Below, piece after piece: positions 8,409 to 37,094 of a stretch of 64,000 nt of DNA. Source of the DNA: a virus. The stretch is from positions 1 to 64,000 of the IMG/VR virus record IMGVR_UViG_3300028840_002691. One strand, written 5' to 3'. The position numbers and the translations under genes were made by a program. Below the pieces are notes generated by a model. The model saw only the letters and a program-made list of their open reading frames with translations. It ran no database searches and was not told the DNA's origin. The number at the start of each line of letters is the position of its first letter. The stretch's first letter is position 1.

Positions 8409-9212
8409 ATGATAGTAACAGTTTGCATAGGCCGAGGAGGCAGCAAGGGCTTCCCAGGCAAGAACAAGTACAGGGTGCTCGGCAAGGAGCTGATGGCATG
8501 GCCGTTGCTGGCTGCTAAGTGCTGCAAGGAAATAAACAGGGTGTACTTCAGCACGGATGACGGAGAGCTGGCAGCCATCGCCAAGTGGTACGGTGCAGAG
8601 GTCATAGACCGTCCACCGGAGCTGTCTACGGATGCTGCGTTGGGTGAGGACGTGTTTGCTCACGCTTACCAGAGCATAAAGGCCAGCGCCGAGGACAGGA
8701 TAAAGCTGGTGGTGCTGCTGTTTGCCAATGCGCCTTGTGTCACGAGTCAGATGCTCACCGAGATGATACGCAAGCTTCGCGAGAGCGAGAACATGATGGG
8801 CGGTAGGTATGACTCCATCTGCACCGTGAGCGAGTACGAGATGTTTCATCCTTCAAGGTGCCGAGTCATTGATGGTCCGCTGCTCAGGCCTTTTTGCCCA
8901 TATGTGGCTGCTGGCTCCACCAGCGACCGCAGAAGCGGAGGTGACTCCTGGTTCTACGACTGCTGCGCTGCGGTGGTCCAGCCAAAGAACCTGGAGCACC
9001 TGGACAGAGGTATGCCTCCGCAGAGGTGGCTGGGGACGCTGGTACTGCCGTACAAGCAGCAGTTCCCTGCGCTGGACGTTGACTACAAATGGCAGGTGCC
9101 GCAGGTGGAGGAGTGGCTCCGCAGGTATGCTCAGTATCCAGCATGCGATTTGCCTGGGGATGAGGTGCATACCGTGAAATGGGAGGAGTTCTGCAGTGAT
9201 CAAAATACTTGA
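8409..9212 (+). CDS. Acylneuraminate (nonulosonate) cytidylyltransferase, NeuA-like #1
   Basis: GRGGSKGFPGKN, STD, RPPELSTD, LDVDY. Confidence 0.85.
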   Translation: MIVTVCIGRGGSKGFPGKNKYRVLGKELMAWPLLAAKCCKEINRVYFSTDDGELAAIAKWYGAEVIDRPPELSTDAALGEDVFAHAYQSIKASAEDRIKLVVLLFANAPCVTSQMLTEMIRKLRESENMMGGRYDSICTVSEYEMFHPSRCRVIDGPLLRPFCPYVAAGSTSDRRSGGDSWFYDCCAAVVQPKNLEHLDRGMPPQRWLGTLVLPYKQQFPALDVDYKWQVPQVEEWLRRYAQYPACDLPGDEVHTVKWEEFCSDQNT

Positions 9213-9984
9213 GAAACTGGTTATTGAAGACGACAAGGAAGTGCTTGAGAAAGCTGCCAAGTATTCTCCTACAGATATGGTTGAGGGCATAATACTAGAT
9301 ACTCGTAGGCTCTATCTTAACCGCTATCATGATCTGCGAGTGGTTTCCAGGGTGGGTGTTGGTACCGATAACATTGACCTCGATGAGTGTAAGGCGAGGG
9401 GTATAAAGGTTTACATTACTCCTTGCCGTGAGCTGACTGATGCTGTGGCTGAGTTTACTTTGTATCTTGCTTTAGCTCTGCTTAGAAAGAACAGCAGGGG
9501 CAGAAACCTGGTGGGCATGACTGTTGGCATATTGGGTTATGGAAGGATAGGCAGCGCAGTGCATGAGCTGTTTCATTCTCTTAGCTGTGATGTCATGCGT
9601 TATGATATTGATGCGTCTGTTGATTACGGACTTGAGCCGAAGGAACAGGTTTTGTCTTGTTCAAGGATAGTAACCATACATTCTTCTGGTAATGAGCAGG
9701 TGATAGGCAAAGAGGAACTGGAACAAATGATGGATGACTCCTACCTTATAAACACAGCGAGGGCTGGCTGCGTGGATGAGTACGCTGTGCTTGATGCTTT
9801 AAGGAGCAAGAAACTGGCAGGGTTCGCTACTGATGTCAATGAGCTGGCTGGCAGGTTCAAACTCTATAACACGGTGGTCACACCGCACATAGCATCCTCT
9901 ACTGTGGAGGCGCGGACAGCCATGGAGCGGATGGCGGTGAAGAACTTGATAAAGGGGCTGAAGAGTGAGAGGAACCGTAGCTAA
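9196..9984 (+). CDS. D-isomer 2-hydroxyacid dehydrogenase (SerA-like)
   Basis: SRVGVGTDNID, GYGRIG, INTARAG, TPHIAS. Confidence 0.9.
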   Translation: MIKILEKLVIEDDKEVLEKAAKYSPTDMVEGIILDTRRLYLNRYHDLRVVSRVGVGTDNIDLDECKARGIKVYITPCRELTDAVAEFTLYLALALLRKNSRGRNLVGMTVGILGYGRIGSAVHELFHSLSCDVMRYDIDASVDYGLEPKEQVLSCSRIVTIHSSGNEQVIGKEELEQMMDDSYLINTARAGCVDEYAVLDALRSKKLAGFATDVNELAGRFKLYNTVVTPHIASSTVEARTAMERMAVKNLIKGLKSERNRS

Positions 9985-10128
9985 GAGACTCAGGAACCAG
10001 GCAGCGCAGATGTGGTTTGACTCAAAAAGGGTCAGGGTCAATATGAGAATGACCAACGGTGGCCGCAGGTATGTGGATGGCAGCTACCCAAGAATGTACA
10101 GGGAGTTGAAGAAGGAGTACAAGCAGAA

Positions 10129-11061
10129 ATGAAAGCTCTAGCCGTAGGAGGTTCAGGTTTCATAGGCAGCCATGTGGTGGAGAGGCTGCTGCTTGAGCAC
10201 TGGGACGTGTTGAATTATGGGTTGCATAATTTTGCGCCAGAAGTGCGGTATGATCCATTTCAGTACAGGTTTGTCGAGGGCAGCATGATGGACTACCCGA
10301 AGCTCTCAAACACCATGTGTGAGTACAGGCCTGATGTGGTTTACAACTTTGCTGCCATTGCCAATATAGAGCAGTGTCAGAAGCGACCGCTGGATGTCGT
10401 GAGAAAGAACATATTGGGCAACACTCATTGCTTGCAGAGTGTGGTAGATGTGATGAGAGAAAATGATCCTGTTGCTGATAATCCTTTCAATGTACATCCT
10501 AAGTTCATCTTCGCCAGCTCGGTGTATGTTTACAACACAGATGCAGGCTTCTACGGCATAGGCAAGAGGGCCTGTGAGGAGCTTATCAGGGAGTACAGCG
10601 AGCAGTTTTGTTTTCCGTTTGTCATCTTGCGTTATGGCACCATTTACGGCCCAAGGGCTAAGGACGACAACAGCATACGCAGCATAGTGAAGCAGGCGCT
10701 GGAGACAAAGGTTATCTCTTATTATGGCACAGGGGAAGAGGTCAGAGAGTACGTGCATGTGAAGGACGTGGCTCGGTGCTCTGTGGAGGTGCTTCATCCA
10801 GAGTACAACAATGAGGCTGTTATCATTTCTGGCACATATCCAGTGAAGGCTAAGGACATGGTGGCGCTGCTGAGCGACATATTAGGCGAGAACTACAGCA
10901 CGGAGTTCCGAGGCGAGGAGCCAGAAGGTCATTACAAGGTCACTCCGTACAGCTTTCAGCCTGATGTCGCGGTGAAGAAGTCCATCAGGGACAGCAGGGA
11001 TCTGGCTTCTGGTTTGTATGATACGGTGCGCAGCATATACGGGGAGATGGTGGTTGAGTAG
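10129..11061 (+). CDS. NDP-sugar epimerase/dehydratase (extended SDR)
   Basis: GGSGFIG, YGIGK, RYGTIYGP. Confidence 0.9.
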   Translation: MKALAVGGSGFIGSHVVERLLLEHWDVLNYGLHNFAPEVRYDPFQYRFVEGSMMDYPKLSNTMCEYRPDVVYNFAAIANIEQCQKRPLDVVRKNILGNTHCLQSVVDVMRENDPVADNPFNVHPKFIFASSVYVYNTDAGFYGIGKRACEELIREYSEQFCFPFVILRYGTIYGPRAKDDNSIRSIVKQALETKVISYYGTGEEVREYVHVKDVARCSVEVLHPEYNNEAVIISGTYPVKAKDMVALLSDILGENYSTEFRGEEPEGHYKVTPYSFQPDVAVKKSIRDSRDLASGLYDTVRSIYGEMVVE

Positions 11062-12295
11062 TCGAGATAAATACCTGGAGCTGGTGGCGGAGCTTGGGAA
11101 GCTGTTCCCAAAGCGACTTTGTTGGTGGTACTCCTCTGTGCATGAGAAGAACACCACCACCAGCAGAGCCTACCACATATTGGCGAAAGACCTGCCAGCC
11201 GAGCCAAAAAGGTTTATGTATGTCAGGGCACTGTACAGAGCTGTAAGGAAGTTCGCGTCAATAGCAGTAAAGAAGGCAAGGAGTGAGCCAATAACAGAAG
11301 TTAGGCAGATTGAAAACCTGATTGTGACTTATGACGGCAGTTTTCTCTCCGTGTTTCATCCTTTGCCTAACGCTGGGTTGCTATATCTGGACAGGGTGTT
11401 TGGGTATCTCAGTTGGTGGGATTTCTTTCGGGTGCTTAGGGCTTACTTTGCTGTTGATTTTGACGGCTCTGTTCGCATTGGAGTTATTGTTCTGGTGGCT
11501 AAGATTTTTGGCAGAGACGACGGCTGGGAGATTTTCAAGGAGGACTTTTATGACTCGCTGTTCGGTGGCAAGTGTATAGAGGGACTGTTCTACGAGAGAG
11601 CGTTTGAAAGAGTGGCAGAGAAACACACAACGGTGAACAAGATCATCTACGTTTATGAGGGGTTTGCTTGGGAGAAGGCTTTGTGTAAAGTGTTTGATGG
11701 AGCGACAAAGGTGGGTGTGATGTGCTCGGTGCCTTCGCCCAACCACATGCAGTACTTCTACCTACCTGACGAGTATATGCCAAAGCCGGATTACTTGGGT
11801 GTGCCTGGTCAGGTGGCTTACGAGCTGATGGAGAAAGCGTATCCAGACAAAGTTTTTATTCTTGGTACAGTGAGGCACAGGCACTTGCTTAAGTGGGAGA
11901 AGATGGAAAGGAAAAAGAGTGACTGTACTTTGGTGATATTGACTCCTAATGAAAGACAGAATAGTTTTCTGATAAACTGGGTTTTTAACAACCTTCAAAG
12001 TGACATGATAAAGAGGAATGTGGCACTCAGAGCACATCCAGATCTGCCAAAGGCTGGCGGGTGGAAGACGATACAAGGCAGTTTAGCGTACTGTCTGCAG
12101 CGAGTCAAGAGGATTGTGGTGTATGACTCCACTGTGGCTGTTGAGGCGTTGGCTTTTGGGCTGGATGTCGTGGTGCCTGAGATGCCTCACTTCGTGCGGT
12201 TGTGCCCACTGCAGGCAGGCAGAAACAATCTTAGAGATTACTTTGACTTCTCTAGGGACGAAGAGCAGATGCGAGAGGCGGTGATGGCTCTGTGA
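11018..12295 (+). CDS. Putative glycosyltransferase-like surface-carbohydrate protein (start uncertain)
   Basis: YEGFAWEKAL, PDYLGVPG, LRAHP, STVAVEALAFG recall GT-B capsule/nonulosonate transferases; cluster context. Confidence 0.5.
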   Translation: MIRCAAYTGRWWLSSRDKYLELVAELGKLFPKRLCWWYSSVHEKNTTTSRAYHILAKDLPAEPKRFMYVRALYRAVRKFASIAVKKARSEPITEVRQIENLIVTYDGSFLSVFHPLPNAGLLYLDRVFGYLSWWDFFRVLRAYFAVDFDGSVRIGVIVLVAKIFGRDDGWEIFKEDFYDSLFGGKCIEGLFYERAFERVAEKHTTVNKIIYVYEGFAWEKALCKVFDGATKVGVMCSVPSPNHMQYFYLPDEYMPKPDYLGVPGQVAYELMEKAYPDKVFILGTVRHRHLLKWEKMERKKSDCTLVILTPNERQNSFLINWVFNNLQSDMIKRNVALRAHPDLPKAGGWKTIQGSLAYCLQRVKRIVVYDSTVAVEALAFGLDVVVPEMPHFVRLCPLQAGRNNLRDYFDFSRDEEQMREAVMAL

Positions 12296-12480
12296 AAAGA
12301 GTTTTGGTGGCCTTGATGGTAGCGGTAGCTTTTCCTCTTGTTGGGCTTGGGTTGGTTGTTGGGCTTAAACTGCTTGCGGATCTTGGTGGAAGATGGTTCT
12401 GGTATGCTTTGGGGTTCCTTTGCTGGTTTGGTTTTGTCTACCATCTTTTGTACTCTGATGATTTTGACTGTGTTCATTAA
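12292..12480 (+). CDS. Small membrane protein
   Basis: Two hydrophobic segments. Confidence 0.5.
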   Translation: MKRVLVALMVAVAFPLVGLGLVVGLKLLADLGGRWFWYALGFLCWFGFVYHLLYSDDFDCVH

Positions 12481-12482
12481 GG

Positions 12483-13355
12483 ATGAAACACTTACTTAAA
12501 AAACTGCCACTGCTCTACAAGAATCCAAAGCTGATAAAGCAAGCAGGCAGGGAACTGTGTATTGACATGGCTAATGACCTGCAGCGGTGGCCTTACCCAG
12601 AGCACTTGATCAACATAGCTGCATTGCCCAAGAGCGGCAGCACGTGGCTCTTCAACATGCTCTGCAACATACCTGGCTACAATCCGTGTCCAGGACTGCT
12701 TAGATCTCTGCAGCTCACTCAGGAAGAGCTGGATAACCACGATATCTCGCAGCGGATGTTCGACGGCATACCCAAGGACAAGTTCACAGTGCTGAAGCTG
12801 CATACAAGGCCAACCAGGAAGAACATAGAGCTGCTGAGGAAGAACAAGGTGAAGGCGATAGTGCTGATACGTGACCTGAGAACCATGGCGGTGTCTCGCT
12901 ACGTGCACGAGAAGACAGACAGGAGCAGCAGGTTTTACAGGGCATACAATGGGATGACGGTTGAGGACGGCATGTGGCACAACCTGAAGATCGTGGTTGA
13001 GCACTATGCTCCTTGGGTTGAGGATTGGGTCTATGTGTGCAGCAAGGATATTGATACGTTTTTCTATTACAAGTATGAAAGTTTGTTGAAATGGACTAGC
13101 ACTATTCTTCAGGATATACTGATATATTATGGTTTGGATCATTATTTTACTATTCATTTTCTTGGTGAATTAAGTAGAATGAAAAAGAGCAAAGCGGATC
13201 TGGAGAGCAACCTCAACACTCCAACCACTCCGCGCAACAGGTCAACTTATTCTGGTGGCAGGCCTGATTGGAATGATTACTACACCAAGGAGCAACGGCG
13301 GTGGTTCATAGACAAGGTTGGGCATGTAATGGCGATGTGCGGCTATGACTGGTAA
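12483..13355 (+). CDS. PAPS-dependent sulfotransferase
   Basis: PKSGSTW, KLH, IRDLR..VSRY, YESL. Confidence 0.85.
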   Translation: MKHLLKKLPLLYKNPKLIKQAGRELCIDMANDLQRWPYPEHLINIAALPKSGSTWLFNMLCNIPGYNPCPGLLRSLQLTQEELDNHDISQRMFDGIPKDKFTVLKLHTRPTRKNIELLRKNKVKAIVLIRDLRTMAVSRYVHEKTDRSSRFYRAYNGMTVEDGMWHNLKIVVEHYAPWVEDWVYVCSKDIDTFFYYKYESLLKWTSTILQDILIYYGLDHYFTIHFLGELSRMKKSKADLESNLNTPTTPRNRSTYSGGRPDWNDYYTKEQRRWFIDKVGHVMAMCGYDW

Positions 13356-14415
13356 GAAAACGATTTGCTTCATTTGTGGGGCACCCAGGTCAGGCACCAC
13401 GTATCTGTGCAACCTGCTGGGCAACCACCAAGAGGTGAGTGTGTTTCCAGGCGAGTGCAAGCTCTACTTTTACTGGAACTACTTTCAGCGCCACGGCAAT
13501 GCCCACAGGTTCTTCAACCGCGATTACCTGAAGACTCAGGAGATACTGAACATTAAGGATTTCTTTTATGCGGTGCAGATGCAGGAGTACAGGAAGAAAG
13601 TCTACGGCGTGCAGAAAGACTTTGAGTGCAGCTATGTCAAGTTTTCTAATGGTGACTGGCGCATAGGGACTGTGGTATCTCATTTGTCGCTGAGGGAGCT
13701 GTATAAAACACTTCTGTCTTCGCTGTCAAATATGGACGGCAAGGTGGTGGTGTTCAAGTGTCCAGTGGGGAATGAGATTGGGGCCATGGAGCTGGAGAAG
13801 GCATTCGGTGTTGACGACGATTACAGGGCCAAGTTCATCCACATCAAAAGGGACTACGCTACAAGGTACATCAGCGCCAAGATGCGCAGGAGGAGAAGGG
13901 GATTTGTGAGGAGTTTGAACGGTAAGGACTTCGCATCAGCGCACGCTGAAGTAGGTATGTTGAGCGATACATTGGCTGAGTTGAATAAGCTGCTTCTGGG
14001 GTCTACGACATATATGGTTACGCATTATGAGAACCTTGCGGAAGATCCTGCTGGGGTGATGTTTTATGTGGATGAGTTCCTGGGGCTGAAGGGGAGGAAG
14101 GAGTTTGAAGTAGACATAGAGGCGGAGCCACGATCTACTTTTGGTGAGCCTGGCAGCACATTGGACAGGAACAGAAGGTACATGAAGCACACCACTCAGG
14201 CTGAGAGAAACATTGTGTCGTTCGTAAGCGGAGTCAAGCCCAGACTGGCTGCTGAGGACTTCTTTCTGCCTCTGAAGTACGAGCACCCATTGGATTATTG
14301 CAGAAATAGAAAGTGGATGCTGGACAATCTCAGGGGTGGATGCGAGAACGTGAAGAGAAAACTCTACTGGCAGATGATGCGCAAATTTGACAGAGGGGAG
14401 GAGGTAACGGATTGA
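13345..14415 (+). CDS. PAPS-dependent sulfotransferase
   Basis: GAPRSGTTYL, KFIHIKRD, YENL..DP. Confidence 0.85.
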   Translation: MTGKKTICFICGAPRSGTTYLCNLLGNHQEVSVFPGECKLYFYWNYFQRHGNAHRFFNRDYLKTQEILNIKDFFYAVQMQEYRKKVYGVQKDFECSYVKFSNGDWRIGTVVSHLSLRELYKTLLSSLSNMDGKVVVFKCPVGNEIGAMELEKAFGVDDDYRAKFIHIKRDYATRYISAKMRRRRRGFVRSLNGKDFASAHAEVGMLSDTLAELNKLLLGSTTYMVTHYENLAEDPAGVMFYVDEFLGLKGRKEFEVDIEAEPRSTFGEPGSTLDRNRRYMKHTTQAERNIVSFVSGVKPRLAAEDFFLPLKYEHPLDYCRNRKWMLDNLRGGCENVKRKLYWQMMRKFDRGEEVTD

Positions 14416-15413
14416 AATTCACTATAGGCTTCGAGAAGGAAGACAAGGCAAAACTCTACGGTCACTTCGACAAGATCATAGCCACGGAGCGGTGGTCGGA
14501 GGGACCGTTCACTGAGCTGTTTGAACAGAAATGGGCAGAGTACGTTGGCACAAAGTACGCCGTGGCTTTCAGCAGTTGGTTTGGGGCTGCGATGGCTGCT
14601 CTGGAGTATTTTAATGTGAGGGGTAGAGCAGTTATCTGTCCATCTAACACTTTTATGGCTACACCGTTGTCTGTGCTGAAGGCTGGTGGAGATGTGGAGT
14701 TCTGTGACTGCAATACCCATGACCTTTGTGCTGGTTTGAGAGATGTGATGGGGTGCATGGGCTTGTCTACGGACGACTGGTATGTTGGGCCTGTTGGAGT
14801 GTTCCTGGTGCATATTGGAGGGCATATAGCTTTTGAGGTTGATGGCATAGCCGCTTACTGCAGGCAGAAAGGCATGTTTCTCATTGAGGACTGTGCTCAT
14901 GCCCACGGCGCTATTTTTCAGGAGAAGAAAGCAGGCACCTTTGGTGACTGCGGAGTTTATTCCTTTTACGCCACAAAGACAATAAGCACTGGAGAAGGCG
15001 GTATGCTGGTGACTGATAATAAGTACCTGGACAAGTTCGCCAGAGAGTACAGGAACTACGGCAAGCCCGATTACAGAACCAGAGGTGGCAACCACAGAAT
15101 GAGCGAGTTCACTGCTGCTTTGGGATTGGTGCAGACTGAACGAGTTGAGGATATAGTTGAATGGAAGAACAGATATGTTGAGAAGCATTATGCGGGGAAT
15201 TTTGAAACTGTGGAGTTCCCTAGAACTATGCGCAGTGGTTATTACAAATTTATTATTTTTGATCGTGATGGCTGTTATGGAGGCCCAACCACTGGGGCGG
15301 TGTACGATGAACCGTGCCATTTGATAATGAATGAGAGAGGGAGTTTCCCAGCAACTGATTGGGTGGCTAAGAATCACAAGTGCTTGCCCATTTACTACAG
15401 AGGCGACGAATGA
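14412..15413 (+). CDS. DegT/DnrJ/EryC1/StrS sugar aminotransferase
   Basis: IEDCAHAHG, SFYATKTISTGEGG. Confidence 0.9.
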   Translation: MKFTIGFEKEDKAKLYGHFDKIIATERWSEGPFTELFEQKWAEYVGTKYAVAFSSWFGAAMAALEYFNVRGRAVICPSNTFMATPLSVLKAGGDVEFCDCNTHDLCAGLRDVMGCMGLSTDDWYVGPVGVFLVHIGGHIAFEVDGIAAYCRQKGMFLIEDCAHAHGAIFQEKKAGTFGDCGVYSFYATKTISTGEGGMLVTDNKYLDKFAREYRNYGKPDYRTRGGNHRMSEFTAALGLVQTERVEDIVEWKNRYVEKHYAGNFETVEFPRTMRSGYYKFIIFDRDGCYGGPTTGAVYDEPCHLIMNERGSFPATDWVAKNHKCLPIYYRGDE

Positions 15414-16105
15414 CAGAAAAGCTAGGACCATTTGAGTTAGGCAAAGTGCACTACATTGATGCTGATGAAGGTTGCGAGCAGCTTCCTGATCAATCAGCTG
15501 ATCTTATTTCAATAGATTGCAGTGCGACTACAAGAGGCAGGGATTCTTACAGACTGCTAAAGCCATTGGGGGTTTTGACTCTGTTTTGGACACCGAGGCA
15601 ATTCGATGACGAAGGAAAATCTCATCTTGAGGAAACATCCCCTTATTTTTTGGGTGGGCAATTTAGAGTTGTCGGTACAATCAAAAACTGTGATAGTCCT
15701 TTCATGTCTATTGGAACTCCAGATAGGATTTCTATTTTAGTGAAAGAAAGCAATCCAATTAAAGAGGTCGGGGAAAACATTATCAGGGTCAGAAGGCGTT
15801 GTATTGTGACCAAGAATGAGAGGTCGTTCGTATTTTGCGCACTCCTTATAGAACTGTTTTCTCCTATGGGCGGTGTAGTATTAGACCCTTATGCTGGAAG
15901 CGCAAGCCTTGGTGTGGCAGCTATGTGCTTTGGCAGAAAGTACTTGGGCTTTGATAATGATCCGGCAGTGGTGGAGGCTGCCAATAAAAACTTGGGTCAA
16001 CACGGGGGAATCAGCTTGCCTTCCACCGCGCAGGCTGATGGCAAACTCTACTGCCAGGAGCTGCATCCAGGAAAGGAAGAGTGGTGGGAATTGGACGAAG
16101 AGTGA
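15410..16105 (+). CDS. N6/N4 DNA methyltransferase-fold protein with degenerate catalytic motif
   Basis: VLDPYAGSASLGVAA..GRKYLGFD SAM motif; DLISIDCS where DPPY is expected. Confidence 0.65.
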   Translation: MTEKLGPFELGKVHYIDADEGCEQLPDQSADLISIDCSATTRGRDSYRLLKPLGVLTLFWTPRQFDDEGKSHLEETSPYFLGGQFRVVGTIKNCDSPFMSIGTPDRISILVKESNPIKEVGENIIRVRRRCIVTKNERSFVFCALLIELFSPMGGVVLDPYAGSASLGVAAMCFGRKYLGFDNDPAVVEAANKNLGQHGGISLPSTAQADGKLYCQELHPGKEEWWELDEE

Positions 16106-16782
16106 TATTGGCTTCTTATCCGAGAAGTGGTACGATGTCCATTGCAGCTTTGTTTGAAAAAGTTGGTGTTAACTCCTTTCACCAGGGCACGAAACCAGGA
16201 GAGAGCACTCCTGCCGACATGAGGATAGTTGGGACTTCTGAGACGAGTGGCATTCACCCAATTAAAAAAACTCCAGAGCGCATAGTTGATAAAGTTAAGG
16301 CAAAGATGTCTAATGTTGGTGATGGAGAAATGTTTGATGCCGATTGGAGAAATTACTGTGTTTTGTACTGGTTAGAGAGATTTGACCCTTCATTGCAGTT
16401 CTTGGTGATGGTACGTGATCCAGTTGATGCCTCTTCCTCTCTGTATGAGTACCATAGGGGCGAAAAGCGGGAGAAGGACCCGAATGATTATTTGAGCAGG
16501 TGGATAGATCTTTATAGTTTTGTTCTTGAGCAGGTTGGGGAGATGACTAGACCAGTGGTTGTGCTAGATTTTGCTGGATATGTAAAGGGTGGTTATACTA
16601 AGTTTCTGCTTGACTTATACGGGAAGGATACCATAGGCAATAGGTTGGAGGTACGAGAGCACTTGAAGGAGAAACTGAACCATTTTGTAGATTACGAGGT
16701 AAAGACTTTCAAGCGCGACCTGGTGAGGAGAGCTAATAAGATAAAGAAGAGACTACTTAAAATGGAGGCACCGAAGACATGA
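16081..16782 (+). CDS. Sulfotransferase-like protein
   Basis: SYPRSGTMS, MVRDPVD..SSL. Confidence 0.65.
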   Translation: MVGIGRRVILASYPRSGTMSIAALFEKVGVNSFHQGTKPGESTPADMRIVGTSETSGIHPIKKTPERIVDKVKAKMSNVGDGEMFDADWRNYCVLYWLERFDPSLQFLVMVRDPVDASSSLYEYHRGEKREKDPNDYLSRWIDLYSFVLEQVGEMTRPVVVLDFAGYVKGGYTKFLLDLYGKDTIGNRLEVREHLKEKLNHFVDYEVKTFKRDLVRRANKIKKRLLKMEAPKT

Positions 16783-27445: not shown

Positions 27446-27743
27446 GACAATAGCACTTATATTGGGAATAGTGGCTACGGCTTTTGGCGGGTATTCCTTT
27501 ATTGACTCCACCTACGCTAGCAAGACAGAGACGGTGGCTGCCTTTTACCAGTTCAAGAGGGACATGGAGACCAACCAGATGTACTATCGCCTGCGCTACC
27601 TGGAGGACTTGGCCATGAACATACGGTGGCACCTGTCGCAGTTCCCGAATGACAGGGCGGCAGCAATGCAGCTGCACAAAGTGGAGCAGGAGATACAGGT
27701 GATTCAGAAGCGCATCAATGACCTTATGTACCACGGAGGTTAA
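27429..27743 (+). CDS. Hypothetical membrane-anchored protein
   Basis: N-terminal TM followed by coiled coil. Confidence 0.55.
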   Translation: MNGTVKTIALILGIVATAFGGYSFIDSTYASKTETVAAFYQFKRDMETNQMYYRLRYLEDLAMNIRWHLSQFPNDRAAAMQLHKVEQEIQVIQKRINDLMYHGG

Positions 27744-27745: not shown

Positions 27746-28093
27746 ATGATGAGAGAGATAAAGTTTAGGTGCTGGCACAGATTGGCAGATAAAATGTTAT
27801 ATGATGAGAAGCCAGGAGATTGTCTAGTTTGGAAAAATCAAGGTCAAGACATTGAAGCTGTCATGCAATACACCGGCCTTAAGGACAAGAACGGTGTGGA
27901 GATTTACGAGGAGGACATTTTAAGATGTTATGATAAAACAACTAATAATGTTTTTACACTTCCCTTATACTGGTCTAAAACACAACCTGGATTTTTTTAC
28001 GGATTATATCATTTGAATACGGTTATGATCAAAGAGCATGAAATTAAAATCATCGGCAATATCTACGAGAACCCAGAACTGGTGAAAACATGA
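27746..28093 (+). CDS. YopX family phage protein
   Basis: REIKFRCW, MQYTGLKDKNGVEIYEEDI, IIGNIYENPEL. Confidence 0.9.
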   Translation: MMREIKFRCWHRLADKMLYDEKPGDCLVWKNQGQDIEAVMQYTGLKDKNGVEIYEEDILRCYDKTTNNVFTLPLYWSKTQPGFFYGLYHLNTVMIKEHEIKIIGNIYENPELVKT

Positions 28094-29379
28094 GGACAAT
28101 AGAGAAGTCATTGAAGCTGTACGACAGAGCACAAAAAGTGATACCTGGCGCCGCACAGACCATGAGCAAGATGTACGGCAGGTTCGCACAGGGTGTGGCT
28201 CCACCGTTCATAAGTGGAGGTTCTGGGGCGTATGTATTCGACTGCGACGGCAACAAATACCTAGACTGGACCGCTGCACTAGGGCCTGTGATTCTGGGTT
28301 ACGGGGCGTTGGGGCCTAAGACCAATGCACCAAAGCTCAGGCCGTCTTTACCGTTGCCGCACTTGTACGAGGTGGAATTGGCCGAGAAACTGGTAGAAAA
28401 GATCCCCTGCGCCGAGATGGTACGGTTCGGCAAAACGGGCAGCGACGTCACCAGCGCCGCTGTGAGGTTGGCCAGGCACGTGACAGGCAGAGGTGGAGTT
28501 GTGTGCATGGGCTATCATGGATGGCACGACTGGTACGCTGGCACTTTGCCCAGCCCAAGATCAGACGGAGTGCCATGGGGAGTTAGAGAGTATGTGCACA
28601 AGATAGACTACAGTGATTTGACGACATTGAAAAATCTATTTGAAGACCCTGAGAAGCACATTGCCTGCTTGATATTGGAGCCGATGTCTCGTTACGCCCC
28701 AGAGCAGGCCAACAGGCAGCACCTGCTAAAGTTGAAAGAGATGTGCGCTAAGCACAGAGTTGTCTTGGTGTTTGACGAGATGATCATGGGCTTCAGGCAC
28801 GCTGTCGGTGGCGGTGGGGAGTTGTTTGGTGTGGAGCCGGATTTGGCTTGCTTTGGCAAGGCGATGGGCAATGGATATTCTATTTCGGCTCTAGTGGGCA
28901 GGAGGGACCTGATGCAGGAGTTGGAGCACCTGCATTTTTCGGGCACGTTCTTTGGTGAGACTATTGGGCTGGCTGCAGCGCTGGACACGATAGAGTTCAT
29001 CCACATGAATGATGTGATTTCCAGGCTTTGGGACAAGGGCACGCTGCTGAATCCAAAGATCCGTCGTCTCATCAACAAACACAACCTCGGCAACAACGGT
29101 GACAGCTGTGTGCACTTGAAGGGGTACGGACCGTGGTCGTCTTTTGAGTGGAAAGAGGAATGCTTTGAGGAGCAGTGTCTGTTCCTGCAGGAAGTGGTGA
29201 AGCGAGGCATTCTGTACAGCAGGGATCATTTCATAATGCACGCGCACACCGAGGAGGACATAAAGAAAACACTCAACGTCTATGACGAGGTATTCGGCTA
29301 CATCAGGGACTGCATGGACAAGGGCACGGTGAACCAAAACCTGGAAGGACGAATAGAGAAGGAGAAGTTTCCGCGATGA
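28090..29379 (+). CDS. Class III PLP aminotransferase (GSA-aminomutase-like)
   Basis: DCDGNKYLD, GYHGWHDW, FDEMIMGFR, FGKAMGNG, SGTF. Confidence 0.9.
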   Translation: MRTIEKSLKLYDRAQKVIPGAAQTMSKMYGRFAQGVAPPFISGGSGAYVFDCDGNKYLDWTAALGPVILGYGALGPKTNAPKLRPSLPLPHLYEVELAEKLVEKIPCAEMVRFGKTGSDVTSAAVRLARHVTGRGGVVCMGYHGWHDWYAGTLPSPRSDGVPWGVREYVHKIDYSDLTTLKNLFEDPEKHIACLILEPMSRYAPEQANRQHLLKLKEMCAKHRVVLVFDEMIMGFRHAVGGGGELFGVEPDLACFGKAMGNGYSISALVGRRDLMQELEHLHFSGTFFGETIGLAAALDTIEFIHMNDVISRLWDKGTLLNPKIRRLINKHNLGNNGDSCVHLKGYGPWSSFEWKEECFEEQCLFLQEVVKRGILYSRDHFIMHAHTEEDIKKTLNVYDEVFGYIRDCMDKGTVNQNLEGRIEKEKFPR

Positions 29380-29594
29380 AAGCCATACTAGAGTTCAATC
29401 TGCCGGAGGACCAGGATGATTACAGACTCCACTGCGCCGCCAGGGAAATGTATCTGGCACTGTGGGACATTGGTGCGTGGTTGAGGGACCAGGAAAAATA
29501 TCATCCTGACGATGAGTGGCCAAAGCTGGATAAGATCAGGGATAGGTTTTACGAGATACTGGACACTAGGAACATCGATCTAGACTCGTTATGA
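29376..29594 (+). CDS. Conserved small phage protein
   Basis: MKAILEFNLPED start typical of a phage hypothetical family. Confidence 0.65.
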   Translation: MKAILEFNLPEDQDDYRLHCAAREMYLALWDIGAWLRDQEKYHPDDEWPKLDKIRDRFYEILDTRNIDLDSL

Positions 29595-29604: not shown

Positions 29605-30750
29605 ATGAGAATACTGCGGATCATAACTCGTTTGAATACTGGTGGCCCAGCCATTCAGGCAATAGACCTGACCAGGGAATTGCACAAACGTGGGCATGAG
29701 TGTGAACTGGTTGTTGGGTTAGCGAGCAGAGAAGAAGGACAGCAGTTTCAGGCAAAAGCAATGGGGCAATTAGGAGATAAACTTGGCTTTTCTTCTACTT
29801 TACAAAGGGAACTAAATTGGTATTGTGACAGGTGTGCCTTCAAAGCTATAAGGAAGAAGATACAGGACTTCCAGCCAGACATCGTGCACACTCATACCGC
29901 AAAGGCTGGCTTCTTGGGCAGGTTGGCTGCTATTACAATCAGGCCCAGGCCGAAGCTGGTGCATACTTTTCATGGGCATGTATTCCACTCCTATTTCAAT
30001 AAGTACAGGAGCTGGTTCTATCTGTTCTTGGAACGGTGGCTGGCGGGGTGGACGGACAAATTGATAGCTGTAAGCAGAAGCCAGATGGACGAGCTGATCA
30101 ACTATCACCTGTTCCCAAGGTACGGTTATGAGGTGATTCCTTTGGGCTTTGACTTGGAGCCGTTTCTGAAAGTGCCCATGTGGAAATACAAGAAGAGGCT
30201 GAACGTAGGGATAGTCGGTAGGTTGACGGCAGTGAAGGACCATGAGCTGTTTTTTGAGTTCGTAAATGCACTAAGAAGGATTACATCTGTAGAGGTTAAG
30301 GCTTTTGTCATTGGCAGTGGTGAGAGAAGGGCCGAACTGCAACGCAAGTATAAGGATGCACTTTTTATGGGAGAAGTGAGGCACAGTGCTCTATCAGCAG
30401 TTTATGAGAACTTGGACCTGGTTGTTTGCAGCAGTAAGAATGAGGGTACTCCGGTGGCGTTGATAGAGGCTATGGCGGCAGGCAGGCCAGTTCTGGGCAC
30501 TTCTGTAGGCGGAGTGAAAGACCTTATAGGCAGGGACGATAGATATGAGTATCCGCCGTTCTCAATAGGCACAATGAGAGGGTTTTACTTGTATAGCCCA
30601 CAGCAAGCAGCTAATGATATCACTCATTCTTTGGACTTGGAATCCTACCACTTCATGATTGCAAGGGCCAGAGAGTATGTGAAGAAGACCTATTCCTTGG
30701 ACAGGCTGGTAGACAGCATTGAGCACTGTTACAGGAGCATACCCAGGTGA
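29605..30750 (+). CDS. GT4 family glycosyltransferase
   Basis: GGPA, HTHTAKAG, GRLTAVKD, EGTPVALIEAMAAG. Confidence 0.92.
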   Translation: MRILRIITRLNTGGPAIQAIDLTRELHKRGHECELVVGLASREEGQQFQAKAMGQLGDKLGFSSTLQRELNWYCDRCAFKAIRKKIQDFQPDIVHTHTAKAGFLGRLAAITIRPRPKLVHTFHGHVFHSYFNKYRSWFYLFLERWLAGWTDKLIAVSRSQMDELINYHLFPRYGYEVIPLGFDLEPFLKVPMWKYKKRLNVGIVGRLTAVKDHELFFEFVNALRRITSVEVKAFVIGSGERRAELQRKYKDALFMGEVRHSALSAVYENLDLVVCSSKNEGTPVALIEAMAAGRPVLGTSVGGVKDLIGRDDRYEYPPFSIGTMRGFYLYSPQQAANDITHSLDLESYHFMIARAREYVKKTYSLDRLVDSIEHCYRSIPR

Positions 30751-32118: not shown

Positions 32119-32129
32119 TTTAGTAAAAG

Positions 32130-32876: not shown

Positions 32877-33806
32877 GTGAAAACACTAGTCACCGGAGGA
32901 GCAGGGTTCATAGGCTCGGCATTGGCTAGGAGGCTGCTACGGCTGGGGCACGAGGTGTATGTTGTAGACGACCTCTCCAACAGCACCAGAGAAAACGTAC
33001 CGGAAGGCGTGAAAGAGTTCTGGCGCATGGACTTCTTTGACGTTGCTGCTTACAATGCTGTGCAGTTTGACTGCATATTTCACCTGGCTGCACCATCTTC
33101 CGGAAGCAAGTCTTTTGAGAACCCACATAAGGAGCTGGAAGAGCATGTTTGGAAAACTTACGAGCTTCTCGAGTGGGCTTACAGTGTGAGCTCAAGGATG
33201 AAGTTCATCTACACAAGCTCTGCCACCGTGTACGGCAACCAAGCTGAGCCAGTGGACGAACTAGAGCCTCTGAGCCCAAAGACACCATACGCTGCAGGCA
33301 AGGCTGCTGCGGAGGCCTACGTGAAGTATTTTGCCAACAGAGGGCTACAGGCCAATGTGGTGCGGCTGCCTGCGGTCTACGGGCCTGGGCAGAACCTCCA
33401 AAACCGAGAGCAGGGCATGGTGAGCATCTACCTCTCATACATTCTAGCCAAGAAGCGGGTGCTAGTAAAAGGGCTGCCGATACGGTACAGGGACTTCATC
33501 TACGTAGAGGATGCGGTGGAGGGGATGCTGGCCGTGATGGACAACACCATGTGCCGACGCACCTACAACCTCTCGACAGGCATCGGCACAACGGTGCACG
33601 ACCTGCTAATGCTGATGTTCCGGATCTCCGGTCACCAGGAGGGCTACGAGGTTGACGAGAGGGGCACTCCTGGTGACCAGTTCGGCATAGTGCTTGATCC
33701 TGCCAGGGCAAGGGACGAGCTGGACTGGGAGGCTAAGACTGATCTTATTACTGGGTTGAAGCTGATGTATGCTTTTGAAAAAGAAAGGAGTGAGCAAAAT
33801 GGCTAA
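32877..33806 (+). CDS. NDP-sugar epimerase/dehydratase
   Basis: TGGAGFIG, YAAGK, VYGPGQ, RDFIYVED. Confidence 0.9.
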   Translation: MKTLVTGGAGFIGSALARRLLRLGHEVYVVDDLSNSTRENVPEGVKEFWRMDFFDVAAYNAVQFDCIFHLAAPSSGSKSFENPHKELEEHVWKTYELLEWAYSVSSRMKFIYTSSATVYGNQAEPVDELEPLSPKTPYAAGKAAAEAYVKYFANRGLQANVVRLPAVYGPGQNLQNREQGMVSIYLSYILAKKRVLVKGLPIRYRDFIYVEDAVEGMLAVMDNTMCRRTYNLSTGIGTTVHDLLMLMFRISGHQEGYEVDERGTPGDQFGIVLDPARARDELDWEAKTDLITGLKLMYAFEKERSEQNG

Positions 33807-34749
33807 ATGTCCATTGTGCAAAAGTGAGGATATGTTCCTGATAACAAATAAGGTCAGGTTCGGCAAAGAGGCTGACGTTTACCGTTGCAATGACTGCTCC
33901 CTGGTGTTTCTGGACCAGGATTCGTTTGAGTTCCCGAAGGACTTCTATGAGAAGGAGTACCACCAGACCTACCTGACCCATGTGGAGCCTGATGCCTTGG
34001 ACCCCGAGAAGTATTTTGAGAAGGCCAGCAAGACGACCAAGAAGTGGGCTGATAAATTCTTATATCAGTTCCCACATTGTATGGAAGCAACAGTGCTCGA
34101 CGTTGGATGCTCTACTGGTCATTTCATGTGCCAGATAAAACCAAAAGTGAGAGCCGTTATAGGTGTAGAGCTGAACGAGAAGGAGCTGAAGTTCTGTAAG
34201 GAGGAAAAGAAGCTGGAAGTGTATAATGTTATAAAGACGGTTTTGGCAAACAAGCACTTCATCACCATGATCTATGTTCTGGAGCACATAGCGGACCCAG
34301 TGACTTTCTTGAAAGACTGCAGGAAGAAACTTATAGTCCCGAACGGTAGAATCGTGCTCCTGGTGCCATGTATAAATGATGCTCTGCTGTGGCTGTACAA
34401 GATACCTGAGTACAAAGAGTTCCACTTCTGCATTGAGCACCTGTACTACTTCAACAAAAAGACTCTGAATCTGGTTCTGGAGCAGGCTGGCTTCAATGAC
34501 ATACAGATAGAGATGCTTCAGGAGTACCCGTTGACAAACCACCTGAAGTGGCTGTACCAACGAGCACCTGGAGGCCTGTTGGAGTCAAGGGAAGGTGAGC
34601 CACCTATACATCCGAGCATGTTTCTGGATACCACAGATGTTGAAACGGCATGGACTCAACTATGGGCCAGGTTCAACATTGACTACAAACACTTCTTATG
34701 GCGTTTTGGATACGGAGACAGATTATGGGCAACAGCAAGCTACGCATAG
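33799..34749 (+). CDS. Class I SAM methyltransferase with N-terminal Zn ribbon (sugar-cluster type)
   Basis: CPLC..CNDC, LDVGCSTG, VLEHIADP, HLYYF. Confidence 0.85.
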   Translation: MAKCPLCKSEDMFLITNKVRFGKEADVYRCNDCSLVFLDQDSFEFPKDFYEKEYHQTYLTHVEPDALDPEKYFEKASKTTKKWADKFLYQFPHCMEATVLDVGCSTGHFMCQIKPKVRAVIGVELNEKELKFCKEEKKLEVYNVIKTVLANKHFITMIYVLEHIADPVTFLKDCRKKLIVPNGRIVLLVPCINDALLWLYKIPEYKEFHFCIEHLYYFNKKTLNLVLEQAGFNDIQIEMLQEYPLTNHLKWLYQRAPGGLLESREGEPPIHPSMFLDTTDVETAWTQLWARFNIDYKHFLWRFGYGDRLWATASYA

Positions 34750-35774
34750 CAATTACAGGCCTAGGTAATAGGGCTTTGCCAAAAGACCCAGACAGCAGCA
34801 ACTGGGATGGCTGGGTGAAGCAGATCCAAAATCATCCCGGCTATGAGTTGATAGCAGCCCACGATCCTGTTGAGAAGAACATTGATTGCAGACAATACGA
34901 GCACCTTTCACACATGCTCTTTGTGGAGAGTGTGGATGTGCTATTGGTGTGCAGCCCCATCAGATATCACGACTCAGGAATACTGGCTGCGCTGAACAGT
35001 CTGCGTGAGCGTGGCAGTCGGCCAACAGGACTGATAGTGGAGAAGCCATTCTGCTGGAATATCCATCAGGGCGAAGTGCTGTTGGAAGACATCAAGGAAC
35101 TGGGCGTAAAGACCTGTATTGTGCAGAACTGGCGCTTCAAGGACGTGGGCCAAACACTAAGAGCCAATCTGAAGAATGAGGAAGTAGCTCACATATTCTT
35201 CTGTTACACAAGAAACAGAGAAAACCCAAACTACCCAGACTACATATTCAAGGAACCTTATCCACCACTGTACGCTATGGGCATACACCACCTGGACTTG
35301 TTCCGGTACATTCTGCGGGATGAGGTTGAGTGGGTCACTGGGCAGGCTTTTAGGCCGGAGTGGTCGCTGTATGAGTCTTATACGGGAGTAAACCTGTTTC
35401 TGCAGATGAAGAGCGGAGTGCCTGTGGTTTATACTAGTACGTTTTCCAGCCCTGGATACGATTTGAATCAAGAGAACCTGCTCATCGAAGGAAGGGGTTT
35501 TGATTGGAATTTGTTGGGAGATTGGGGTGACGGATATTTGTTCATGAGCACTAGCCAAATGAATACTCCGCCAAAATGTCTTCCTTTTGAGAAAACAAAA
35601 GAACAGTACGACAAAGCAGACAAATATATCTTGGACAGCTTTTACGAAACCATGATACACGGAGCACCAGAGATCTGCTCGGCTGAGGACGCCTTCAAGT
35701 CTGTGCTAGTGGTGGAGGCGGCTAGAAAGGCTTGCGAAACAGGGGAGAAAGTCTACATAAAGGAGTTAAGCTAA
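34725..35774 (+). CDS. Gfo/Idh/MocA oxidoreductase
   Basis: GLGNRA, VEKP, QNWRF, GIHHLDL. Confidence 0.85.
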   Translation: MGNSKLRIAITGLGNRALPKDPDSSNWDGWVKQIQNHPGYELIAAHDPVEKNIDCRQYEHLSHMLFVESVDVLLVCSPIRYHDSGILAALNSLRERGSRPTGLIVEKPFCWNIHQGEVLLEDIKELGVKTCIVQNWRFKDVGQTLRANLKNEEVAHIFFCYTRNRENPNYPDYIFKEPYPPLYAMGIHHLDLFRYILRDEVEWVTGQAFRPEWSLYESYTGVNLFLQMKSGVPVVYTSTFSSPGYDLNQENLLIEGRGFDWNLLGDWGDGYLFMSTSQMNTPPKCLPFEKTKEQYDKADKYILDSFYETMIHGAPEICSAEDAFKSVLVVEAARKACETGEKVYIKELS

Positions 35775-36292
35775 TGTACTGGTTCACAGCCGACGAGCAC
35801 TACAAACACAGCAGGATCATAGACTACTGCAACAGGCCATTTGACTCAATAGATGAGAATGATTTAATGTTAATGGCTAACCACAATAGTGTAGTGAGTA
35901 AAGATGATACTACTGTGCATGTTGGGGACTTTGGCTTTTTCAGGACAAAGAAGGAGGCTGGAGAGTACATACGATGCCTGAACGGCAATCACATCTTTGT
36001 CAGGGGTAGTCATGATCGCTGGGCACCAAAGTCTATGCGTGAGATATGGAAGAACAAGATAGATGGGCAGACAGTAGTAGCCTGCCATTATGCTATGCGC
36101 ACTTGGCCTGCATCCCATCACAACAGCTGGCTCCTCTATGGCCACAGCCATGGCAGGCTGCCTCCGCAGGGCAAGAGCTGGGACGTTGGGGTTGACTGCA
36201 ATGGGTATTTTCCTGTCTCCTGGGACACGGTGAAGAAAATAATGGAGGGGAGGCCGGACAACTTTAACTATGTTCACAAAACTAAAGCATAA
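35774..36292 (+). CDS. Calcineurin-like metallophosphoesterase (phage type)
   Basis: ADEH, VGDF, GSHD, GHSH, DVGVD. Confidence 0.85.
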   Translation: MYWFTADEHYKHSRIIDYCNRPFDSIDENDLMLMANHNSVVSKDDTTVHVGDFGFFRTKKEAGEYIRCLNGNHIFVRGSHDRWAPKSMREIWKNKIDGQTVVACHYAMRTWPASHHNSWLLYGHSHGRLPPQGKSWDVGVDCNGYFPVSWDTVKKIMEGRPDNFNYVHKTKA

Positions 36293-37094
36293 GCTGGCTA
36301 TCTGGTCTATCAGAAAAGCCTTAAAAGAACAGAACCTCATGCCCATTTACGAGGAGCTGGAAGAGATCTTGCCCGACATCAGAGACCAGTACTCGTTTGC
36401 CGAGGTCAACTCGGAGTACAAGATCACCAATATAAGGGCGATGCATGCGTTTCAGATGGACTTTTTGTCAAAGGCAATAGAAAGGGTAGGGGAAAGGGCG
36501 ATCGTCGTTTCTATGGTGTCTGAGGACGTCTCAGGGGCTTTGAAGGGTATCGATATCGGAGACAGCTCAGGCAACCACACTCTGTATCTGAAAGGGCTGT
36601 TTCCGGCCACCAGGTTCAAGATGCTCAGCGTGAACGCCGACGAGAACGCTGTGAACAAGATCGCTGCAAAAGGCCTGAACGCCATATTGTGCTCGCTGGA
36701 AGATCTGGTGATGTTTGAGAAGTACGAGCCGTATGACTTCGGGATGATGTTTGAGGTTCTGGAGCACATAGAGAATCCGGTGGACGTGCTGCGGAAGCTG
36801 AAAAAGATGTGCATAGACAAGTTCATAATCACGGTGCCCTACCTGAGAAAGAGCCGAGTCGGGCTGCACCAGATACGGCAAGGCTCTGGTGGGTACAATT
36901 TGGAGAATACGCATATCTTTGAATTGTGCCCAGAGGATTGGAAGCTGCTGTTCGCCTACACGGGATGGGAGGTGGTAAGAGAAGCTGTCTATTTGCAGTA
37001 CCCGAGGTGGTGTCTGCCGCTGAGATACTTGTGGCGGAAGAAGGACTTTGAGGGCTTTTGGGGATGTGTGCTGGGAAGGAAAGATGAAACTTAA
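36270..37094 (+). CDS. SAM-dependent methyltransferase-like protein
   Basis: DIGDSSG, FEVLEHIENP, ITVP. Confidence 0.7.
   Translation: MFTKLKHKLAIWSIRKALKEQNLMPIYEELEEILPDIRDQYSFAEVNSEYKITNIRAMHAFQMDFLSKAIERVGERAIVVSMVSEDVSGALKGIDIGDSSGNHTLYLKGLFPATRFKMLSVNADENAVNKIAAKGLNAILCSLEDLVMFEKYEPYDFGMMFEVLEHIENPVDVLRKLKKMCIDKFIITVPYLRKSRVGLHQIRQGSGGYNLENTHIFELCPEDWKLLFAYTGWEVVREAVYLQYPRWCLPLRYLWRKKDFEGFWGCVLGRKDET

Follow-up and report, generated by a model that had tools for sequence, protein, structure and literature searches.

The window analysed here covers the opening 64 kb of one uncultured-phage record of 105,094 bp (IMGVR_UViG_3300028840_002691, hereafter G000; no Ns), in which a block of sugar genes at positions 8409-37094 occupies ~27% of the genome. 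The block encodes about 30 intact, very divergent sugar enzymes, all on the plus strand, and we propose that they build a glycan for the coat of the phage particle itself. Judging from a motif enriched in the structural proteins of this phage and its relatives, we see about an even chance that outer virion proteins carry this glycan, which may contain two different nonulosonic acids, at SGx[T/S] sites. Giant viruses and a few mycobacteriophages are known to encode glycosylation of their own particles; a large, self-sufficient pathway serving the virus's own particle has not been established in environmental tailed phages.

The capsid protein sets G000 within a clade of uncultured phages related at 45-60% identity, and we compared its genome with G002:C1 (a 111-kb contig binned into a metagenome-assembled genome, MAG), G003 (101 kb) and G004 (112 kb), both with direct terminal repeats, and G005 (100 kb, 78% complete). 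Sugar islands are present in G000, G002:C1, G003 and G004. In the structural proteins of all four, SGxT ranks first among the 8000 possible patterns of the form a-b-x-c when counts are set against a composition-based expectation, with 23 occurrences versus 5.1 expected, 50 versus 8.0, 34 versus 6.2 and 28 versus 5.1 (p 5e-9 to 1.5e-23). Every permutation of these residues is 4-7 times rarer, and patterns other than SGxT lead in the remaining proteomes of these genomes and in G005, where SGxT occurs once. Across ~140 head-module loci, SGxT was counted 478 times versus 70.5 expected where the major capsid protein is at least 45% identical, and 86 times versus 61 below that level. The Ser, Gly and Thr codons used at these sites are diverse, which rules out a DNA-level motif as the cause and argues for selection at the protein level. 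The other strongly enriched patterns in the non-structural proteome (QVxG, DAxV, YGxA and VSxD) all trace to a highly repetitive 312-aa open reading frame (ORF) at 90953-91891 of G000, outside the window. As a correlation, the SGxT pattern is what would be expected of a post-translational sequon on exposed surfaces. The first-pass annotation of this DNA had proposed virion proteins or DNA as the target of the glycan; given this enrichment, virion proteins are the best supported, and nothing we found supports DNA.

The proteins that carry the motif are otherwise unrelated, and include three decoration paralogues, two small head paralogues, and adaptor, head-closure, terminator-like, tube-like and fibre proteins; PHROGs supplies a name for one of ten. 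No SGx[ST] site is present in the capsid protein, the portal, the MuF-like protein or the terminase. In the window, all on the plus strand, the sites fall in three paralogous capsid decoration (cement) proteins encoded at 55310-57088 (2-3 SGx[ST] each), two paralogous small virion-module proteins at 58335-59393 (again 2-3 each), and neck/connector proteins at 62020-63801, including the head-closure protein Hc1 (phrog_161). An AlphaFold2 model of the decoration protein encoded at 56570 (predicted local distance difference test score, pLDDT, 86) matches the fold of the trimeric decoration proteins of HFTV1, phi29 (base of gp8.5) and Pam3, and places both SGTT sites in loop regions, one of them in a low-confidence loop. 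Almost all of its 69 homologues have 2-5 sites, which return at a small number of semi-conserved alignment positions where sites are gained, lost or replaced by near-variants such as SAVT and GGVT. Two site-rich proteins lie in the neck-tail region of relatives: a 908-residue protein in G003 (L192:50-2776) with 25 SGx[ST] sites and a 937-residue protein in G002 (rel 80252-83065) with 11, neither of which has a BLAST counterpart in G000. These may be dedicated glycan-bearing fibre or decoration proteins.

The head module also encodes a candidate glycan ligase or O-oligosaccharyltransferase (59489-61573, plus strand), a membrane enzyme with a WaaL-like fold and a C-terminal tetratricopeptide-repeat (TPR) domain that matches Wzy_C with 54.9 bits (cut-off 31.7). 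Its best PDB match in a Foldseek search is the O-antigen ligase WaaL (7TPG_B; E 4e-4, TMt 0.63), followed by TPR domains. In the AlphaFold2 model of the 694-residue protein (pLDDT 83), 13 helices span the membrane, residues 283-372 form a large loop, and the C-terminal domain consists of helical repeats. Across 19 homologues, R313, R315, R340 and H371-N372-D373 are invariant or nearly so, and His371 aligns with H337-N-E of E. coli WaaL. They correspond to the conserved Arg residues and catalytic His that WaaL and PglL enzymes carry in the large loop before TM10. None of the four island-bearing genomes encodes any other polytopic membrane protein. Searches of 5.8 billion proteins and of 185,579 species genomes gave no cellular homologue, all matches lying on phage-like contigs. 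Among distinct relatives whose sequence extends at least 7 kb past the capsid gene, 12 of the 13 with at least 45% capsid identity carry the WaaL-like gene, 0.7-8.2 kb on the downstream side, and 0 of the 29 below that do; the sole exception among the 13 is G005. An initial view that the window lacks any Wzx, Wzy, Wzm or initiating phosphoglycosyltransferase must therefore be amended for the Wzy_C protein. In the genome, a Bac_transf search found no initiating transferase, there is no second polytopic protein that could act as a flippase, and no Maf/MptE-like transferase (PF01973) was matched. Between the genes of the small, abundant head proteins and the WaaL-like gene lies a perfect palindromic hairpin with a 15-bp stem (59402-59439), which may be an attenuator that keeps expression of the WaaL-like gene low.

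The sugar genes occupy the same slot in relatives. From the Rad50-C-like gene to the terminase, 32-37 kb are present in G000, G002:C1, G003 and G004, with sugar genes in each, and the slot is at most 4.4 kb in G005 (measured to the portal gene). NeuB is encoded in four of the five long IMG/VR relatives and in the 111-kb MAG contig. The core common to the islands consists of a short-chain dehydrogenase/reductase (SDR), a DegT aminotransferase, a short NeuB, a cytidylyltransferase and a family 2 glycosyltransferase (GT2). With G003 the window shares 12 orthologues at 25-52% identity, including those of 8409-12295 in the same order; the other islands share family membership only (25-30% identity), and the structural proteins are 44-50% identical. 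Thus, the position of the slot is conserved and its content is hypervariable, as relatives have it in the same place and share few sugar genes. Variable sugar genes combined with a sequon and a ligase that are kept would be expected if diversifying selection acted on a surface coat. G005, which lacks NeuB, any SDR, the WaaL-like gene and an SGxT excess, has a GT2 and a GT4-like gene.

Beyond this clade, the searches revealed no close cultured phage: a megablast of the sugar block and structural module against 50,697 phage records returned zero matches, and tblastn with the terminase and NeuB gave remote matches only. NeuB was not matched in a single-protein scan of IMG/VR. The MAG bins that contain related contigs carry conflicting labels, namely Planctomycetota, 'archaeon' and Pseudomonadota. 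Remote relatives of the capsid protein (31-35% identity; L010, L011, L013, L015 and L017) lie on contigs of 0.17-5.8 Mb in Gemmatales and other Planctomycetota MAGs, which suggests that these loci are prophages of a sister lineage in planctomycetes. They have neither the WaaL-like gene nor an SGxT excess.

Several features indicate that the block belongs to the phage, as the first-pass annotation had argued. CheckV completeness of G000 is 93%, essentially all coding capacity is on the plus strand, and GC content (0.46-0.54) and positive GC skew are even over the block and its flanks. On the 5' side lie genes for RecA, an SbcC/Rad50-like ATPase, an SbcD-like phosphoesterase and an Ig-like protein; on the 3' side lie those for a PurZ-like protein, the large terminase, a lambda-type portal, two beta-helix proteins, the MuF-like protein, a TnsA-like endonuclease, the major capsid protein, the Wzy_C protein and the neck. 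Neighbouring genes overlap at 33 of the 40 junctions in the block, in keeping with the translational coupling noted earlier, and phage genes do interrupt it: a YopX gene at 27746 stands between sugar genes. It is therefore extremely improbable that the block is an assembly chimera or a passively carried host lipopolysaccharide (LPS) island, a possibility that could draw on the bacterial ancestry of the enzyme families and nothing further. Against it stand the uniform strand, GC and GC skew, the overlapping junctions and interleaved YopX gene, the 12 orthologues common to G003, and the occupied slot in four independently assembled genomes, two of which have terminal repeats.

We checked the gene calls with Pfam and NCBIfam profiles, taking the NCBIfam cut-offs as the standard for equivalogs, and almost every gene of the original inventory was confirmed in place. 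NeuB1 (17714-18796), with a TIM barrel and a SAF domain, scores 214 bits on the NeuB family, and NeuB2 (19474-20325), a short synthase of 283 aa without SAF, scores 181, both well above the PF03102 cut-off of 22.1; the two are 27% identical. Both score higher on the NeuB/LegI model than on PseI (for NeuB1, 250.5 bits on TIGR03569, cut-off 399.65, and 199.7 on TIGR03586, cut-off 340.25; for NeuB2, 188 and 148); all four scores are below the equivalog cut-offs. The closest solved relative of both is 6NCS, a 290-residue short synthase that gives 129 bits with NeuB1 (114 for the PseI structure 8H2C) and is also the best PDB match of NeuB2. The short type of NeuB2 is the form kept in related phages, with homologues in G002, G003, G004, G006 and G007. 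A 116-aa ORF 3' of NeuB2 was considered as a split SAF domain and ruled out on checking. Two cytidylyltransferases are present as well. The first (8409-9212; NeuA/PseF/KdsB-like) scores 54.9 bits on CTP_transf_3 and 74.7 on PseF (cut-off 205.7) and is 51% identical to its G003 orthologue. The second (24466-25167) scores 38.4 and 79.9 bits on the same models, and its type is kept in all island-bearing relatives, with homologues in G002, G003 and G004.

Enzymes that could feed these synthases surround them. Two SDR epimerases/dehydratases lie at 10129-11061 (Epimerase, 128 bits) and 16779-17738 (187.8 bits; LegB 120, cut-off 475), and a third begins at 32877. There are two DegT-family aminotransferases, one of the DegT/PseC/LegC type at 14412-15413 (DegT 202.9 bits; PseC 137.7, cut-off 423.5) and one at 25143-26354 (192.7 bits; 48% identical to its G003 orthologue), and a class III, GSA-aminomutase-like aminotransferase at 28090-29379 (Aminotran_3 119.5 bits; PRK06209 306, cut-off 486; 52% identical to its G003 orthologue). 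The sole candidate nucleotide-sugar hydrolase in the block is a PseG-like, GT28-like protein at 20669-21619 (PseG 71.1 bits, cut-off 153.55; Glyco_tran_28_C 22.3 bits), and it is followed by an LmbE/PIG-L de-N-acetylase at 21597-22262 (PIG-L 60.9 bits). A D-2-hydroxyacid dehydrogenase at 9196-9984 (2-Hacid_dh_C 98.7 bits; 47% identical to its G003 orthologue) is a candidate that could supply an unusual N-acyl or ether side group. No sign of pervasive catalytic decay was seen in these genes. Each of the three SDRs keeps GxxGxxG and YxxxK, both DegT enzymes carry DxAHA (the one at 14412 also showing a clear SFxxxK lysine context), both NeuB proteins have the DH[NT] motif, and the sulfotransferases described below retain their phosphosulfate-binding loops.

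The first-pass annotation had proposed two different nonulosonates and a Pse/Leg-type (pseudaminic/legionaminic acid) pathway. Two products are plausible in view of two synthases, two cytidylyltransferases and two candidate GT-B transferases, and they are probably of the 5,7-diamino type, given the three aminotransferases, three SDRs, de-N-acetylase and 2-hydroxyacid dehydrogenase encoded alongside. The assignment to Pse/Leg pathways stands at the level of families only, as every enzyme scores far below its NCBIfam equivalog cut-off. For example, the best PseB score among block proteins is 53 bits (cut-off 407.75). Pfam scans of the block found no GNAT or hexapeptide acetyltransferase that could act as a PseH/LegH-type N-acetyltransferase, and no block protein matched the NeuC/LegG-type family (PF02350, Epimerase_2), which appears only as a co-annotation of the Atlas neighbours of the protein encoded at 22255.

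That protein (22255-23829), which has no Pfam match, and one at 11018-12295 (TIGR04326, 47.8 bits, below cut-off) are the candidate nonulosonate transferases. In the ESM Atlas, the 11018 protein, which is TIGR04326/LIC13510-like, has a structural TM of 0.79-0.85 to TIGR04326, Capsule_synth and Glyphos_transf clusters, and the LIC12162/PFTS-like 22255 protein has a feature score of 0.95 and a structural TM of 0.57-0.77 to LIC12162, Glyphos_transf and Epimerase_2 clusters. Both therefore group with LIC12162/TIGR04326/PFTS/Capsule_synth-type GT-B proteins, a class that adjoins bacterial nonulosonate genes; the idea that they are paralogues of each other was rejected on comparison. Together with the synthases and cytidylyltransferases, they would make up two synthase-activator-transferase sets. 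Two further glycosyltransferases are encoded: a GT2 enzyme at 26552-27445 (Glycos_transf_2, 57.6 bits), with homologues in G002, G003 and G004, and a BshA/WbnH-like GT4 enzyme at 29605-30750 (Glyco_transf_4, 101 bits; PDB 2JJM, 3MBO and 4XYW).

Three sulfotransferases with intact 5'-phosphosulfate-binding loops, found only in G000 among the phages compared, are encoded at 12483-13355 (Sulfotransfer_1, 47 bits; loop PKSGST), 13345-14415 (Sulfotransfer_3, 47.9 bits; PRSGTT) and 16081-16782, the last a weak match (Sulfotransfer_1/Sulfotransfer_4, 21 bits, just below cut-off) with a YPRSGT loop and RDP...S. Sulfation would depend on 3'-phosphoadenosine-5'-phosphosulfate (PAPS) from the host, as no adenosine-5'-phosphosulfate kinase is encoded. 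A module at 32877-37094 holds the third SDR (32877), class I methyltransferases at 33769 and 36270 (the latter 39% identical to its G003 orthologue) and a GFO/IDH/MocA oxidoreductase (34698). A phosphoesterase counted earlier among the block's phage genes is a weak metallophosphoesterase-like match at 35732 (18 bits, cut-off 27). The two methyltransferases first listed become four methyltransferase-like genes when N6_N4-like proteins at 15380-16105 (PF01555, 39 bits, C-terminal part only) and 23829-24494 (41.9 bits) are included. These two are paralogues with 31% identity that keep the S-adenosylmethionine-binding DPYAGSG of N6/N4 DNA methylases and have lost DPPY (degenerate DCSA in the first, DSPR in the second); neither has a homologue in the related phages. 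The block also contains a WbqC-like protein (18789-19481; PF08889, 205.7 bits; no PDB match), a MKAILEFNLPED protein (29376-29594) and, among the sugar enzymes, small ORFs at 12292-12480, 20322-20672 and 27429-27743 with one or two hydrophobic helices each, which could be membrane anchors for enzyme complexes.

How might these parts work together? Our model takes its enzyme steps from family-level homology and its attachment sites from comparative sequence statistics. The SDRs, the DegT and class III aminotransferases, the PseG-like hydrolase and the LmbE protein would convert host nucleotide sugars into modified amino-hexoses, which the two NeuB-type synthases would condense with phosphoenolpyruvate into two different nonulosonic acids, and the two cytidylyltransferases would activate these as CMP-sugars. 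The GT2, GT4 and two GT-B transferases would then build an oligosaccharide, probably capped by the nonulosonates, which the three PAPS-dependent sulfotransferases (drawing on host PAPS) and several methyltransferases would decorate. Finally, the glycan would be O-linked to Ser/Thr of S-G-x-T/S in loops of outward-facing virion proteins, namely the gpD-like decoration trimers and the small head, neck, tail-tube and fibre proteins. Attachment could take place in one of two ways. First, soluble transferases could act directly from nucleotide sugars, in the cytoplasm, as first suggested. Second, the WaaL-fold/TPR enzyme could transfer the glycan en bloc from a lipid-linked precursor, with the TPR domain recognizing the protein. 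The presence of a WaaL/Wzy_C enzyme makes the lipid-carrier route equally possible, so that direct transfer is one of two routes. The second route would account for a sequon and ligase that stay constant next to hypervariable sugar genes, and for the joint presence or absence of motif, ligase and NeuB.

The orientation of the WaaL-like enzyme bears on this question. Averaged over 19 homologues, the short loops on the catalytic side contain 8.7 Lys and Arg residues, versus 1.4 on the other side, and the N-terminus consists of two residues and is acidic. In E. coli WaaL, which we counted by hand as a control, the bias is opposite to that of the phage enzyme, with ~18 Lys/Arg on the cytoplasmic side versus 4 on the periplasmic side. 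The positive-inside rule is used to predict membrane orientation, and by this rule the phage enzyme is predicted to be inverted, with its catalytic loop and TPR domain in the cytoplasm. We treat the inversion as a hypothesis, since it depends on Lys/Arg counts and one crude control. Whichever way the enzyme is oriented, its extra 13th helix brings the TPR domain to the catalytic side, which suggests a protein acceptor. To our knowledge, the characterised WaaL/PglL (Wzy_C) members all act on the periplasmic face. An inward-facing O-oligosaccharyltransferase, which would move the glycan en bloc to SGx[T/S] of folded virion proteins from an undecaprenyl-diphosphate carrier that had not been flipped, would explain the missing flippase, the position in the head module, a sequon that stays constant beside hypervariable sugar genes, and the fact that island, ligase and motif strictly co-occur; even so, we regard it as doubtful.

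Several observations weigh against glycosylation of the virion. The system is predicted from the sequence of an uncultured phage, and all pathway assignments fall below equivalog cut-offs. The periplasmic face on which the known WaaL/PglL enzymes act is, as far as we know, not where tailed-phage proteins are found, and the genome encodes no initiating phosphoglycosyltransferase, flippase or Maf-type transferase that we could find. Paralogues and repeat proteins inflate the SGxT counts (one G003 protein has 25 sites), and shared ancestry could explain the co-occurrence of features, since it is seen in one clade with the single contrast of G005, itself 78% complete. The main rival, which we hold to be rather unlikely, is that the phage remodels the host envelope during lytic infection. 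A conventional, periplasm-facing WaaL-like enzyme would use a host initiating transferase and flippase and ligate the lipid-linked glycan to lipid A-core or envelope proteins, thereby masking receptors, excluding superinfection or reducing the loss of progeny on debris. The Wzy_C match, the WaaL fold with intact Arg/His, the known orientation of the family and the fact that the ligase is the only polytopic membrane protein per genome all fit such a role, and seroconverting phages with Wzy or Gtr genes are known. However, the very strong, clade-specific SGxT enrichment in virion proteins would be unrelated and left unexplained, and the Lys/Arg distribution is the reverse of the E. coli WaaL pattern. 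Neither an integrase nor a resolvase turned up (0 PF00589 or PF00239 matches in the 93%-complete genome), which makes lysogenic serotype conversion unlikely and means that the benefit would go to a cell about to lyse, at the cost of a large investment, 27% of the genome.

Alternatively, virion proteins could be glycosylated by soluble transferases only, as in mycobacteriophages, with the WaaL-like protein serving some other role. This we consider unlikely. A GT2 enzyme is kept in all four island-bearing genomes, two GT-B proteins are candidate CMP-nonulosonate transferases, no initiating transferase or flippase is encoded, and there are precedents in mycobacteriophages and in the spore crust of B. 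subtilis, to which legionaminic acid is linked and for whose assembly it is needed (PMC7439481). Yet G005 has a GT2 and a GT4-like gene and no SGxT excess, the sequon is constant in the clade whereas the soluble transferases are 25-40% identical or unshared, and it is the ligase that co-occurs with the motif. Far less probable than either is that the sugars are placed on phage DNA bases. Hypermodification of DNA by phage glycosyltransferases is known (Pyle 2024, cited in PMC12619734), and the PurZ-like gene adjoins the island. Nevertheless, no DNA glycosyltransferase family was detected in the island, no precedent is known to us for a nonulosonate, sulfate or oligosaccharide on DNA, and DNA modification explains neither SGxT nor the membrane ligase.

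Virion glycosylation in G000, if it occurs, would have partial parallels elsewhere. In mycobacteriophages, phage enzymes glycosylate structural proteins of a tailed phage inside the infected cell, namely the capsid and tail tube (Freeman et al. 2023, Cell Host Microbe, as cited in PMC12619734). They use a few glycosyltransferases and host nucleotide sugars, at sites in the C-termini of capsid and tail-tube subunits. In contrast, the pathway predicted here is a 29-kb de novo one with nonulosonates, sulfation and methylation, its candidate SGxT sites are internal ones distributed among many proteins, and the conserved set includes a WaaL-like membrane enzyme. Giant viruses (chloroviruses and Mimiviridae) likewise have a large autonomous sugar apparatus for their own particle and clade-variable glycans, but they are eukaryotic viruses with different enzyme sets and are not known to use a WaaL-type lipid-carrier ligase. 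The seroconverting phages D3, epsilon15 and SfV resemble G000 in encoding a membrane enzyme of an O-antigen-pathway family. They are temperate, however, and use 1-3 accessory genes to modify the O-antigen of the lysogen, whereas G000 has no detectable integrase, a complete sugar pathway, and the membrane enzyme in its core head module.

Among bacterial systems, WaaL, PglL, TfpO and PglS (Pfam Wzy_C; 7TPG) share with the phage protein the Wzy_C domain, the WaaL fold, and the conserved Arg/His in the large loop, and relaxed glycan specificity of the PglL type would fit a constant ligase with variable islands. The phage protein differs in its 13th helix, the ~200-residue TPR domain on the catalytic side and a charge bias opposite to that of E. 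coli WaaL; in addition, no cellular homologue was found, the gene lies in the head operon, and the presumed acceptors are cytoplasmic. Bacterial Pse, Leg and Neu pathways (flagellin Maf/FlmG; the B. subtilis sps legionaminic-acid spore crust, PMC7439481; the Leptospira nonulosonic acid cluster, PMC3438082) likewise combine NeuB and a CMP-transferase with DegT/SDR feeders. The short 6NCS-type NeuB and the LIC12162/LIC13510 types are of a kind that NCBIfam and Pfam name from Leptospira locus tags. In contrast to these pathways, no PseH/LegH, NeuC/LegG or Maf was found here, scores are sub-equivalog, and the sulfotransferases are an unusual addition. The literature we searched, with incomplete coverage, contains no description of a phage nonulosonate pathway tied to virion proteins or of a phage O-glycosylation sequon, and a large published NeuB phylogeny does not mention viruses.

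In this clade of ~100-112 kb phages, between about a quarter and a third of the genome goes into a variable sugar factory, and the combination of a conserved ligase-like enzyme with a simple candidate sequon makes the proposal testable without phage culture. If it is true, SGx[T/S] would be the first phage O-glycosylation sequon, and the islands would be a new source of nonulosonate, sulfo- and methyl-sugar enzymes and possibly of a new oligosaccharyltransferase type for cytoplasmic glycoconjugate production; an enzyme mechanism of an altogether new category is a realistic prospect. Confirmation would also call for a different reading of the 'LPS or capsule auxiliary metabolic genes' found in viromes. 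An inward-facing enzyme, if real, would amount to a virus-specific protein glycosylation system with its own sequon.

Other genes of the window lie outside this system; no tRNA was found within its 64 kb. Immediately 3' of the block, a PurZ-like adenylosuccinate-synthetase homologue (37912-38946) scores 255 bits on NF038379 (cut-off 300) and 250 bits on the archaeal-type PurA model, and its P-loop, GSEGKGK, has Ser where PurA has the catalytic Asp. The gene suggests a 2-aminoadenine (Z-base) genome, and no DatZ/MazZ partner was identified within the window. Two adjacent right-handed beta-helix proteins (48119-50508; Beta_helix, DUF5123, Disaggr_assoc) are encoded between the portal-adjacent and MuF-like genes, an odd site for depolymerase-like proteins; G005 has a 667-aa relative adjoining its neck genes. 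Finally, the TnsA-like endonuclease gene (51980-53381) lies in a low-GC patch (0.37 at 52-54 kb), and its relatives in L004 and L005 stand directly 3' of the capsid gene. It resembles a mobile homing endonuclease that changes position inside the head module.

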